Shown: one piece after another, positions 39,878 through 41,268 of the stretch
Layout of the letters: every line of letters begins with the position of its first letter
Numbering within the stretch: the stretch's first letter is position 1
NCBI RefSeq assembly: GCF_048403405.1
Contig: NZ_CP183129.1
Direction: 5' to 3' (one strand)
DNA from: Escherichia coli
GTDB taxonomy: Bacteria > Pseudomonadota > Gammaproteobacteria > Enterobacterales > Enterobacteriaceae
Length of the DNA: 64,000 nucleotides
Made by a program: the position numbers and the translations under genes
Notes under the pieces: generated by a model
Told to the model about the DNA's origin: nothing
The model's input: the letters and a program-made list of their open reading frames with translations, nothing else
The model's database searches: none

Positions 39878-40436
39878 AATAAAGTTCCTCTAATGGTAGA
39901 GTAATATGGTGTATACGGAAACATAAAAATGTTTAATTGTTGTGAAAGTAATTGCAAACAGATGTCCTACTTTTATCCAATATTTATATGGAAAAGGATA
40001 ATGCTTAAATCTGTTTTTTTAATTATCGATGTGGTCTGGAGAGGCAACTGTCAAAAATCGCTCATACGAAACTAATGATTAGCAGAATAAGATCTATGAA
40101 AGAATATATTGCTATATGAAGTTTATTTTTATGGGGTGAAAAGTAACAGATATCATAATGATGCGAAAACTCTTCAACTAATGTAATAAAGTTTTATTAT
40201 TAGATACAAAATCATTACAAACTTTCATTGAATCGATGGTAACTATAAATAGTGCTAAGTATTAGCATTTGCTTGTTGACTGAGAGTATCGACTTTGTGA
40301 ATGGAAGCGGTGTCGGGTTTTATGTCGCAGGTAATGACGACCCAGGATGAATGAGAACGCATAAAAATCTGTTATTTACATCATAAGATCATCATGTTTA
40401 TTGCGTGGTTTATAAGTATTGTTATTGCATACTCAA

Positions 40437-40512
40437 GGCCCTTTAGCTCAGTGGTTAGAGCAGACGACTCATAATCGTCCGGTCGCTGGTTCAAGTCCAG
40501 CAAGGGCCACCA
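40437..40512 (+). tRNA. ileY: tRNA-Ile (anticodon CAU, lysidine-modified minor isoacceptor)
   Basis: 76-nt cloverleaf ggccctttagctcagtggttagagcagacgactcataatcgtccggtcgctggttcaagtccagcaagggccacca; 7-bp acceptor stem, anticodon loop ctcataa. Confidence 0.9.
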
Positions 40513-41268
40513 AATCATCATTCAGGTATCAGGAAGAGTTAAGGGTACAAGGGGTACTCGATGGCGGTCTATATTTCACGACTAACGCCATTTCAAGGAA
40601 GAAGTGTGGTGGGTGGTTTCGAATGAGGGCTGGTGTTTTGGTACGTGGCACGCCACTGCAATGTATTTATCCATCAGTACTCATTCAAAAGTACCTGGAA
40701 AAAATGCCCGCTATGCCAAGCGGGCAAATTGCTTACATGTGGAATTAAGTAATTAACGATAAAGCCAGAGTATTATCATTTATCATGCCTCTTCATTTAA
40801 TCAGGTTAATTACTCAAATCACTGAACTATTCTCTGTTCGCTCACTGATGATAAGTGAAGTGTCACAACCACGATTTGTATGTGGACCAATGCTGTAGAG
40901 TAAGGATGAAATGTCTCTGCCACGCCTTAAACATCTACTACTGACTAGAACCGCCGTCGAATGCAGAAGAGTCTTGTGAGCATTACAGGAGTCTGGCTTT
41001 GGTCATTAATCAACGCTATTTAGATATAAATTTCTAACACTCAAAAAACGATTCTCACGAATAAATTATAACGGGTGGTTTTTATCATACAGTGAAATAA
41101 CCTTTTGCTTATTAAATTTAACATTCTTGTGCTAAATTAATTAAAAGTACCATGTATAGCATATGAAGCTGTTAATGCCAGCAATTGTCTCAAATGAGCG
41201 ATTTTTTATAGTGACAAACAATAATAACATTAAAAATAGCCATGTAGACATTAACTGAGGAAAAGACA

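Follow-up and report, generated by a model that had tools for sequence, protein, structure and literature searches.

The region lies in a window of 64,000 nucleotides (the whole stretch analysed) of the Escherichia coli contig NZ_CP183129.1. It corresponds to the E. coli locus ygaQ-ileY-ypjCB, in which a gene for tRNA-Ile2 (anticodon CAU) is placed between two long spacers (Table 1). The first-pass annotation had described these spacers as AT-rich, non-coding gaps of about 560 and 756 bp. This description holds: they measure 559 bp (30.8% G+C) upstream and 756 bp (37.4% G+C) between ileY and ypjCB, against 49.7% G+C for the whole window, and the flanking reading frames end exactly as it had said. 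The gene order is identical to that of the K-12 ileY locus (ygaQ' - ileY - ypjC/ypjB - pinH' - ypjA, 2.778-2.789 Mb), with which the window shares both spacers, the same tRNA and the same downstream hairpin at 94% identity across the 1391 bp. Both ygaQ, which matches the Pfam families Alpha-amylase_C and Alpha-amylase, and ypjCB are intact in the window and pseudogenes in K-12, and the CP4-57 prophage found at ssrA in K-12 is absent.

Table 1. Features of the ileY region and of the surrounding islet (positions of the window; putative features are marked as such).
Feature	Position	Strand	Remarks
Accessory low-GC islet	37488-48242		10,755 bp (10.8 kb), between glaH and ssrA
ygaQ-like alpha-amylase-family gene	37625-39877	-	intact, 750 aa
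Upstream spacer	39878-40436		divergent ygaQ and ileY promoter region (predicted)
ileY, tRNA-Ile2, anticodon CAU	40437-40512	+	ARAGORN, Rfam, RefSeq
attB core for P2-like prophages and islands	40467-40515	+	anticodon loop to 3 nt past CCA; vacant
Rho-dependent termination zone of the ileY transcript	40513-40560	+	putative, from K-12 data
Back-up Rho termination of minus-strand transcripts before ileY	40600-40650	-	putative, from K-12 data
Intrinsic-terminator-like hairpin followed by T6	40699-40726	-	sequence scan and folding
Candidate transcript, about 150 nt	40699-40849	-	start equivalent to K-12 2785425(+); predicted end at the hairpin
Promoter-like site TTGTCT-16-TATAGT	41185-41212	+	57 nt upstream of ypjCB; consensus scan only
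ypjCB (DUF5507 + DUF5508)	41269-42723	+	intact; split pseudogene in K-12
Mobile relics	43017-43251	+	IS3-family transposase scrap, about 43017-43082; serine-recombinase (pinH) scrap, about 43090-43251
ssrA (tmRNA)	48394-48756	-	3' end toward the islet; own attB unoccupied in the window

The tRNA gene is labelled Met by ARAGORN because of its CAT anticodon; RefSeq annotates it as tRNA-Ile, and its Rfam tRNA score is 73.7 bits. The sequence folds into a CAU cloverleaf and fits the E. coli tRNA-Ile2 genes, not a Met tRNA. The allele differs from K-12 ileY at four positions and from ileX at six, all of them paired positions or position 44; it carries an A28-U42 pair, C43 and C44, and it is positions 28, 42, 43 and 44 that depart from K-12. 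The acceptor-stem pairs C4-G69 and C5-G68, which are reported TilS determinants, are present. The product is a tRNA-Ile2 of the ileX/ileY type, whose CAU anticodon would read AUA after lysidine modification of C34 by TilS.

We analyzed the spacers in the light of published binding and transcript data, all obtained with K-12 and carried over to this strain, which is 94% identical here. In K-12, H-NS occupies the intervals 2785257-2785783 and 2785817-2786024, the latter covering 2785817-2785938 and 2785970-2786024 in the upstream spacer (PMC8894471). RpoD SELEX peaks flagged HNS are found in both spacers (PMC3946193), RpoS SELEX peaks are present in the ypjCB-side spacer, and Hha binds near ileY (PMC2408971). 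In an hns mutant, ypjC and ypjB are increased with log2 fold changes of 2.1 and 3.5 (PMC8894471), and so is the start site TSS_2785425_+ (log2 fold change 2.1; PMC8894471 source data). H-NS ChIP and transcript data had been proposed as a check on the locus; they place H-NS on both spacers and reveal an H-NS-repressed start. The two spacers are AT-rich and their K-12 counterparts are bound by H-NS and derepressed without it, as expected of H-NS-silenced xenogeneic DNA.

Transcript ends also point to this type of DNA. A scan of the plus strand after ileY gave no terminator-like site; in K-12 a Rho termination region peaks at 2785734(-), which is 28 nt beyond the end of ileY and corresponds to about 40540 of the window (PMC7815308 Supplementary file 2). 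On the other strand, an orphan Rho region at K-12 2785647(+) (Rho score 3.9, p = 1.6e-6) maps to about 40627 (PMC7815308). These positions are approximate because the Rho scores use 800-nt windows. Low G+C content, H-NS occupancy, starts and genes derepressed in hns mutants and Rho-dependent ends of orphan transcripts are common to the K-12 ileY locus and to the foreign AT-rich DNA silenced by H-NS and Rho (Singh et al. 2014, PMC3923964; Warman et al. 2020, PMC7229825; Forrest et al. 2022, PMC8894471), and ygaQ itself is a model gene for intragenic promoters in that work. Unlike in those systems, the silenced DNA here surrounds a tRNA gene, and one orphan transcript also meets a hairpin of the intrinsic type. 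Since a tRNA gene is enclosed, silencing may also limit a rare-codon tRNA.

The strong hairpin that the first-pass annotation had placed at 40705-40726 is real. It consists of a stem of 8 bp, six of them G-C, and a loop of 6 nucleotides, with a folding energy of -15.4 kcal/mol as plus-strand RNA (z -3.1) and of -15.8 kcal/mol as minus-strand RNA (z -3.7). What had been missed is that only as read on the minus strand does the stem lead into a T6 run; on the plus strand it leads into AAATTG. The hairpin is thus oriented as a terminator of the strand opposite ileY, and therefore the tRNA transcript is not ended by it. Stem and U-tract are combined on the minus strand only, and no RNA 3' end was mapped at the hairpin in the K-12 Term-seq data (PMC7815308 Supplementary file 1). 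This result is not decisive for the present strain, because the K-12 allele is weakened by a C.A mismatch on the minus strand (-9.6 versus -15.8 kcal/mol here) and the locus is silenced. A stem mutation of this kind, producing a C.A mismatch on the minus strand and a G.U pair on the other, was present in about half of the sampled alleles.

The K-12 start TSS_2785425_+ maps to position 40849 of the window, on the minus strand, and 123-150 nt further along that strand lies this canonical hairpin with its T6. The resulting candidate transcript has a predicted fold energy of -41 kcal/mol that beats shuffled sequences (z-score -3.2), and about 3000 genomes carry a single copy of the segment with 95-99% identity. 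These properties would suit a bona fide small RNA of about 150 nt, repressed by H-NS and running from 40849 to the hairpin and its U6 at 40699, which would be trans-acting or would pair as an antisense RNA with a long ypjCB leader. We regard this as unlikely. The strand opposite the candidate folds equally well (z-score -3.7). With a pi of 0.020, the hairpin segment is as diverse as the local baseline, with 0.027 in the ygaQ coding sequence and 0.024 in the upstream spacer, so that a functional small RNA is not supported. The block 40612-40849 had appeared to be specially conserved; this was rejected since, segment by segment, its diversity is at the local baseline and only the adjoining segments are unusually divergent, its neighbours being hypervariable. 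Furthermore, 1-nt and 4-nt indels distinguish the two haplotypes in the promoter region of the start at 40849, and therefore the start may not exist in this strain. The stem mismatch seen in about half of the alleles and the K-12 Term-seq result also argue against a small RNA.

An Rfam scan of the flanks scored only the tRNA and no known RNA family; an antisense 'Plastid-ycf2' match and a weak STnc550 match were artefacts. The segment was not found outside E. coli: a cross-species search for the DNA pattern (tRNA 3' end, then hairpin) returned only one contig, E. coli-like and identical to the K-12 allele, inside a Planococcaceae MAG, which is taken to be contamination. Measured against the features of an Hfq-type small RNA, the candidate has a start seen only in K-12 and a terminator present in the window sequence, together with a promoter that is not conserved; conservation above background and membership in a known family were not found. 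A more elaborate form of the idea is equally improbable in our view: an H-NS-repressed RNA from 40849 to 40699, convergent with ileY and made only on desilencing, would act on islet genes (e.g. on a long ypjCB leader) or on ileY expression, and the stem polymorphism would tune read-through into the tRNA. Most likely, the candidate transcript is a spurious H-NS-repressed RNA. The suggestion that the gaps could hold small RNAs or silenced promoters is consequently borne out for the promoters, by the K-12 H-NS ChIP, SELEX and start-site data, and unsupported for the small RNAs, given the baseline diversity.

The coding potential of the gaps was evaluated on their open reading frames. No Pfam match was obtained for the 10 frames of at least 30 codons that were scanned, a set to which those at 40633-40752 and 41163-41258 do not belong. 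Nearly all gap frames are interrupted in one or more of seven strains; these same two, of 39 and 31 aa and both on the plus strand, are open in all seven, the second one stopping 10 nt before ypjCB. That either encodes a real small protein is highly improbable. Besides their persistence, a 94-aa 'hypothetical protein' speaks for it, which PGAP sometimes calls across the tRNA remnant and the trailer where an island splits the tRNA; this call, however, reads through tRNA sequence, and in the genomes listed the tRNA is the only PGAP annotation of the region. Moreover, the substitutions in both frames are almost all amino-acid-changing, and both GTG and ATG occur as their start codons. A conserved protein-coding gene in the gaps, the discovery of which the first-pass annotation had set against its own reading, was thus searched for and rejected, on the Pfam scan of the 10 frames, their breakage across strains and the amino-acid changes in the survivors.

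The first-pass annotation had also pointed to the tRNA as a possible integration site, and this is borne out in other strains. P2-like prophages occupy ileY there, strain ET220 has a tyrosine integrase directly next to the site, and ter islands insert at 'tRNA-Met ypjC-ygaQ' (PMC8193136). The attL and attR of strain MLI106K2 have a repeat of about 50 nt in common, ACTCATAATCG...CCACCAAAT. Homology to the window resumes at query position 590, which is window position 40467. As at other tRNA- and tmRNA-associated att sites (P2-like phages; ter islands at ileX and ileY), each end of the inserted element carries a copy of the tRNA 3' half. Occupied sites elsewhere have an integrase beside one end; the window site shows neither integrase nor repeat. 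The absence of both, already remarked upon in the annotation, was confirmed: no integrase lies next to the tRNA, and a search for a clear att repeat found no copy of the tRNA 3' end in the 64 kb, up to 3 mismatches being allowed in 18 or 30 nt. Their absence is explained by the vacancy of the site. The 3' half of ileY is an attB in current use in other strains and empty here, not the scar of a decayed insertion.

Comparison of genomes places ileY inside a larger polymorphic element. In about 1300 of the 5426 E. coli genomes compared, glaH lies directly beside ssrA; in strain razor3, for instance, the two adjoin across a spacer of 683 nt. Homology of the window to this short form ends at 37487 and restarts at 48243, which gives the missing DNA defined borders. 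Within it lie ygaQ, ileY, ypjCB and ypjA, together with scraps of an IS3-like element and of a serine-recombinase gene. Its composition is atypical, the G+C content being 42% for 37300-48393 (the islet and about 340 nt of spacer) and 50-52% in the flanks, and it contains relics of mobility. The recombinase relic, a fragment of 55 residues 1.8 kb downstream, matches Resolvase (PF00239, E = 6.6e-10) and is labelled by PGAP as a 'recombinase family protein' fragment; the IS3 scrap matches HTH_21 with an E value of 4.7e-4, below the family cut-off. No repeat of the ssrA 3' end was found at the far border of the islet. An exact peptide-word scan of the representative genomes of the species collection gave no relatives of YgaQ in other species. 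The islet is old and decayed, and was probably gained by horizontal transfer.

Short-form genomes lack ileY together with the DNA on both its sides, and therefore the tRNA is located within the islet and not at its edge. Thus ileY is a passenger of the islet and not its landing site. The same polymorphism bears on another explanation of the flanks, namely that they are the decayed remains of an island once integrated at ileY, whose integrase and att repeat have eroded beyond recognition. The proven use of ileY as attB, the recombinase and IS scraps 2.5 kb downstream and the AT-richness of the flanks speak for it; nevertheless, we consider it very unlikely. The polymorphism removes ileY and both its sides (37488-48242), the tRNA does not persist in genomes without the element, and neither an adjacent integrase nor a repeat at a far border, even a degenerate one of the tRNA end, was found. 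In addition, the scrap belongs to a serine invertase (Resolvase), not to a tyrosine integrase of the tRNA-targeting type, and similarity to phages or plasmids is confined to the tRNA and the next 26 nt or so, the gaps otherwise showing none, so that a phage or plasmid origin of the flanks is not supported. The old, decayed islet of the first-pass annotation thus exists as a neighbourhood, and island variants at ileY do occur among strains, but the islet is not anchored at ileY, which it includes along with both flanks. An inverted repeat of 13-31 nt brackets the tRNA (40047-40077 and 41182-41212); we rejected it as the ends of a mobile cassette, since 13 nt were reached in 16% of dinucleotide shuffles.

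Taken together, these data make it quite probable that the two stretches are regulatory and spacer DNA of ileY, a horizontally acquired, weakly expressed spare tRNA gene in the decayed glaH-ssrA islet. H-NS with Hha, whose binding was shown in K-12, would coat the AT-rich DNA here as well and damp the divergent ygaQ/ileY promoters and the ypjCB promoter or promoters. The promoters are predicted, either inside SELEX peaks or from matches to the consensus; measurements of damping cover only ypjC and ypjB and one start site. RNA polymerase may also start at fortuitous sites, as in other AT-rich foreign DNA, one of them being the minus-strand site at 40849 seen in K-12. Such minus-strand transcripts would head toward ileY and be stopped by the hairpin and T6 at 40726-40699, with Rho probably stopping near 40627 those that leak through, and antisense transcription would thereby be kept out of ileY. 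The ileY transcript, which lacks an intrinsic terminator, would end through Rho action some 28 nt downstream of the tRNA, as in K-12. The 3' half of the gene is the attB for P2-like phages and integrative islands, and is vacant in the window.

This reading also bears on the relation between ileY and ileX. In E. coli ileX is essential and the near-identical ileY is dispensable (PMC11480407). The mature tRNAs differ at two positions for K-12 ileY and at six for the window allele. Comparison of the flanks of the two genes revealed no homology. The ileX gene has a TATAAT box (the consensus -10) and a GC-rich discriminator, and its intrinsic terminator lies within 50 nt. None of these is found at ileY, which has AT-rich flanks, no obvious strong promoter and, by analogy with K-12, Rho-dependent termination. 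A weak, foreign-looking promoter and terminator context under H-NS and Hha would be a likely reason why ileY cannot replace ileX.

The AT-rich stretches are therefore flanks of the spare gene ileY that were already known and are silenced by H-NS, and the locus is an ordinary one; its value for discovery is small because xenogeneic silencing of the DNA around an accessory tRNA gene is seen here in its textbook form. For annotation, ileY should be treated as cargo of the glaH-ssrA islet and the hairpin assigned to the strand opposite the tRNA. It is also useful to record that the attachment sites of ileY and ssrA are both vacant in this strain; in strain CFSAN061763, by comparison, an island occupies ssrA, so that its sequence departs from that of the window at 48398.

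The 1391 bp at 39878-41268 comprise one tRNA gene and two flanking gaps, and the first-pass observation was confirmed. The neighbouring genes end at exactly the borders it gave, both gaps are AT-rich relative to the whole window (49.7% G+C) with no coding support found, and the hairpin at 40705-40726 is real (-15.4 to -15.8 kcal/mol, z-scores -3.1 to -3.7). As also stated there, no integrase adjoins the tRNA, and its 3′ end is not repeated anywhere in the 64 kb with up to three mismatches allowed. ARAGORN labels the gene Met from its anticodon CAT, the Rfam tRNA score is 73.7 bits, and RefSeq annotates it as tRNA-Ile. 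Since only four positions differ from K-12 ileY, the gene is identified by its sequence as ileY, the second of the genes that encode the AUA-reading tRNA-Ile2. The window is chromosomal E. coli DNA, and the locus is 100% identical to several sequenced strains and 94% identical to K-12. Of 5426 complete E. coli genomes, 2869 contain it at a coverage of at least 80%. It matches the K-12 ileY locus, the silencing of horizontally acquired AT-rich DNA by H-NS, Hha and Rho, and tRNA-borne attachment sites. The finding is real but ordinary, and in substance already known. Both neighbouring genes, ygaQ and ypjCB, are intact in the window strain, whereas K-12 and many others carry them as pseudogenes.

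Features around ileY, with nucleotide diversity (pi) of selected segments
Feature	Position	Strand	Details
ygaQ-like alpha-amylase-family gene	37625-39877	-	intact, 750 aa; gene calls, Pfam
ygaQ coding, 5′ part			pi 0.027
Upstream gap			559 bp, 30.8% G+C
Upstream spacer, ygaQ-proximal			pi 0.024
Segment	40231-40376		pi 0.073
tRNA gene ileY	40437-40512	+	ARAGORN, Rfam, RefSeq
Downstream gap			756 bp, 37.4% G+C
Block containing the hairpin	40612-40849		pi 0.020
Segment	40850-41180		pi 0.094
ypjCB	41269-42723	+	intact, 484 aa, DUF5507 + DUF5508; gene calls, Pfam
ypjCB 5′ end			pi 0.100
IS3-family transposase fragment	~43017-43082		HTH_21, E = 4.7e-4, below family cut-off
Serine-recombinase fragment (K-12 pseudogene pinH)	~43090-43251		Resolvase, E = 6.6e-10

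A conserved coding gene in the gaps, which would have spoken against the first-pass reading, was searched for by homology and not found. None of the ten gap ORFs of at least 30 aa scanned had a Pfam match. Across seven divergent strains, nearly all gap ORFs are broken in one or more, and in the few open in all seven the substitutions are mostly amino-acid-changing. The tRNA was the only PGAP feature beneath the match in the genomes listed, and the gaps showed no other Rfam family and no phage or plasmid similarity beyond it.

G+C is low between about 37.3 and 45.8 kb of the window. A query across the glaH/ygaQ junction matched fully in 4080 genomes, and the match ended at 37487 in about 1300 others. 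In strain razor3, one of the short-form genomes in which glaH adjoins ssrA, a 683-nt spacer follows glaH and leads directly to ssrA, and homology to the window picks up again at 48243; positions 37488-48242 (10,755 bp) stand in place of 333 nt of the short form. This islet (about 42% G+C, measured over 37300-48393) contains ygaQ, ileY, ypjCB, the autotransporter gene ypjA and two mobile-DNA scraps, and the presence/absence pattern with defined borders, the atypical base composition and the mobility-gene relics agree with an accessory islet in decay, lying between glaH and ssrA. Those of an island anchored at ileY were absent: no integrase is adjacent in the window, no terminal repeat occurs in the 64 kb, and the tRNA is not left behind where the element is missing. 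The proposal of an old, decayed islet at the tRNA was right in spirit, but the tRNA lies within the islet and does not anchor it; 37488-48242 is absent as one block from the short form. Judged from these alignments, ileY appears to be cargo and not the entry site. The first-pass interpretation is partly supported.

No repeat of the tRNA end or the ssrA end was found at the islet borders. The right border (48243-48398) is outside ssrA, at the hairpin AAAAAGCCCACATCTGTGGGCTTT some 150 nt past the 3′ end of that gene. The IS3-family scrap directly adjoins the pinH scrap, between ypjCB and ypjA (43017-43251). The tRNA is flanked by an imperfect inverted repeat of 31 nt, of which 13 nt form a perfect core (40047-40077 and 41182-41212); it is probably due to chance, 16% of shuffles attaining 13 nt, and its right arm overlaps the promoter-like site that precedes ypjCB. 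No YgaQ relative turned up when one genome per bacterial species was scanned with a peptide pattern. The DNA pattern of tRNA 3′ end followed by hairpin hit a single contig, taken as contamination since it is identical to the K-12 allele and lies in an unrelated MAG.

ileY is a live attachment site, vacant in this window. The locus is interrupted in strains MLI106K2 and SEV1 by a P2-like prophage that carries its integrase; homology resumes at 40467, in the anticodon loop, and the prophage is bounded by two copies of a ~50-nt repeat, ACTCATAATCG to CCACCAAAT, which have three mismatches between them. A tyrosine integrase adjoins the same point in strain ET220, and the site listed as 'tRNA-Met (ypjC-ygaQ)' in a survey of tellurite-resistance islands (PMC8193136) is ileY. 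About 190 genomes (3060 minus 2869) have the downstream block without the contiguous locus. Other strains have lost the tRNA through IS-mediated rearrangements, a loss also described in E. coli W and B (PMC3032704). The ssrA attB is also vacant in the window; the otherwise closest strain, CFSAN061763, departs at 48398 with an island in its ssrA, and in K-12 this attB holds the prophage CP4-57. The ileY alleles vary exactly within the att core (40464-40503; tRNA positions 28, 42-44 and 67), the window carrying A28-U42, C43 and C44 and K-12 G28-C42, U43 and U44. The variants in the 3′ half (GCTT..., G67) are identical both to the copy that the P2-like prophage carries at attL and to the 3′ half of ileX, the other tRNA-Ile2 gene. 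In strain SW4848 the site is vacant and the tRNA is the same as this attL hybrid: A28 is mismatched with C42, and U6 forms a wobble pair with G67. Such variation resembles the scars that earlier rounds of phage integration and excision would leave.

The flanks of ileX and ileY have nothing in common. The ileX promoter has a TATAAT box and a G+C-rich discriminator, and an intrinsic terminator follows the gene within 50 nt, whereas the consensus scan found no comparable promoter upstream of ileY and no plus-strand terminator. In keeping with this, ileX is reported to be essential and ileY dispensable, although their K-12 tRNAs differ at positions 6 and 67 only (PMC11480407).

The suggestion of silenced promoters in the gaps is borne out by K-12 data (window = 40512 + (2785762 - x), x being the K-12 coordinate). 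H-NS-bound intervals at 2785257-2785783 and 2785817-2786024 (PMC8894471) span the bulk of the downstream spacer and, in the upstream one, the third nearest the tRNA, leaving an unbound stretch over the G+C-rich tRNA. RpoD-holoenzyme SELEX peaks marked 'HNS' lie in both spacers (PMC3946193), RpoS peaks are also present (PMC5493296), Hha, a partner of H-NS, binds near ileY (PMC2408971), and ypjC and ypjB are up in an hns mutant (PMC8894471). Rho-dependent termination peaks on the ileY strand 28 nt past the gene, at 2785734(-) (about 40540), and a second, 'orphan' region lies on the opposite strand at 2785647(+) (about 40627, minus strand) (PMC7815308). The one start site given for these spacers, TSS_2785425_+, rises about fourfold without H-NS (PMC8894471 source data) and maps to 40849 on the minus strand.

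The first-pass annotation had missed that the hairpin stem is followed by T6 on the minus strand only, where alone the consensus scan gave a terminator-like site. On the strand that gives the hairpin its U-tract, the start precedes it by 123 nt, so a minus-strand transcript of about 150 nt, 40849 to 40699, is predicted, with a fold of -41 kcal/mol (z = -3.2). That it is a real small RNA, as this fold might suggest, is very unlikely: the plus strand folds equally well, K-12 Term-seq gives only the mature tRNA 3′ end at the locus, and the promoter immediately upstream of the start varies by indels between haplotypes. In half of ten alleles examined a stem base is changed; the minus-strand RNA then has a C.A mismatch (-9.6 kcal/mol), whereas the plus-strand RNA still pairs there, as G.U. 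Moreover, a first alignment gave the impression that the hairpin block was specially conserved, which per-segment diversity overturned; the block is at the local baseline and its neighbours are unusually divergent instead. Most likely the transcript is a spurious H-NS-repressed RNA typical of AT-rich foreign DNA, ygaQ being a model gene for such promoters (PMC7229825). The hairpin and Rho would jointly stop this RNA before it ran antisense into ileY.

The ypjCB-proximal spacer and first 300 nt of ypjCB (40850-41570) fall into two deep haplotypes (pi ~0.09-0.10 against a baseline of ~0.02), with indels immediately before the K-12 start site. The divergence may come from an imported old allele or from diversifying selection at the N-terminus of YpjCB. 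In one gallium-evolution population, K-12 position 2785563 (about 40711, in the hairpin stem) carries G->A at 19% (PMC6928379), probably noise or a neutral change. Elsewhere in the window, a serV-argVYZQ-type cluster at 5595-6322 has Ser-GCU and four Arg-ACG genes; the antisense 'tRNA-Arg tcg' that ARAGORN places over it (5711-5782, -) is almost certainly spurious.
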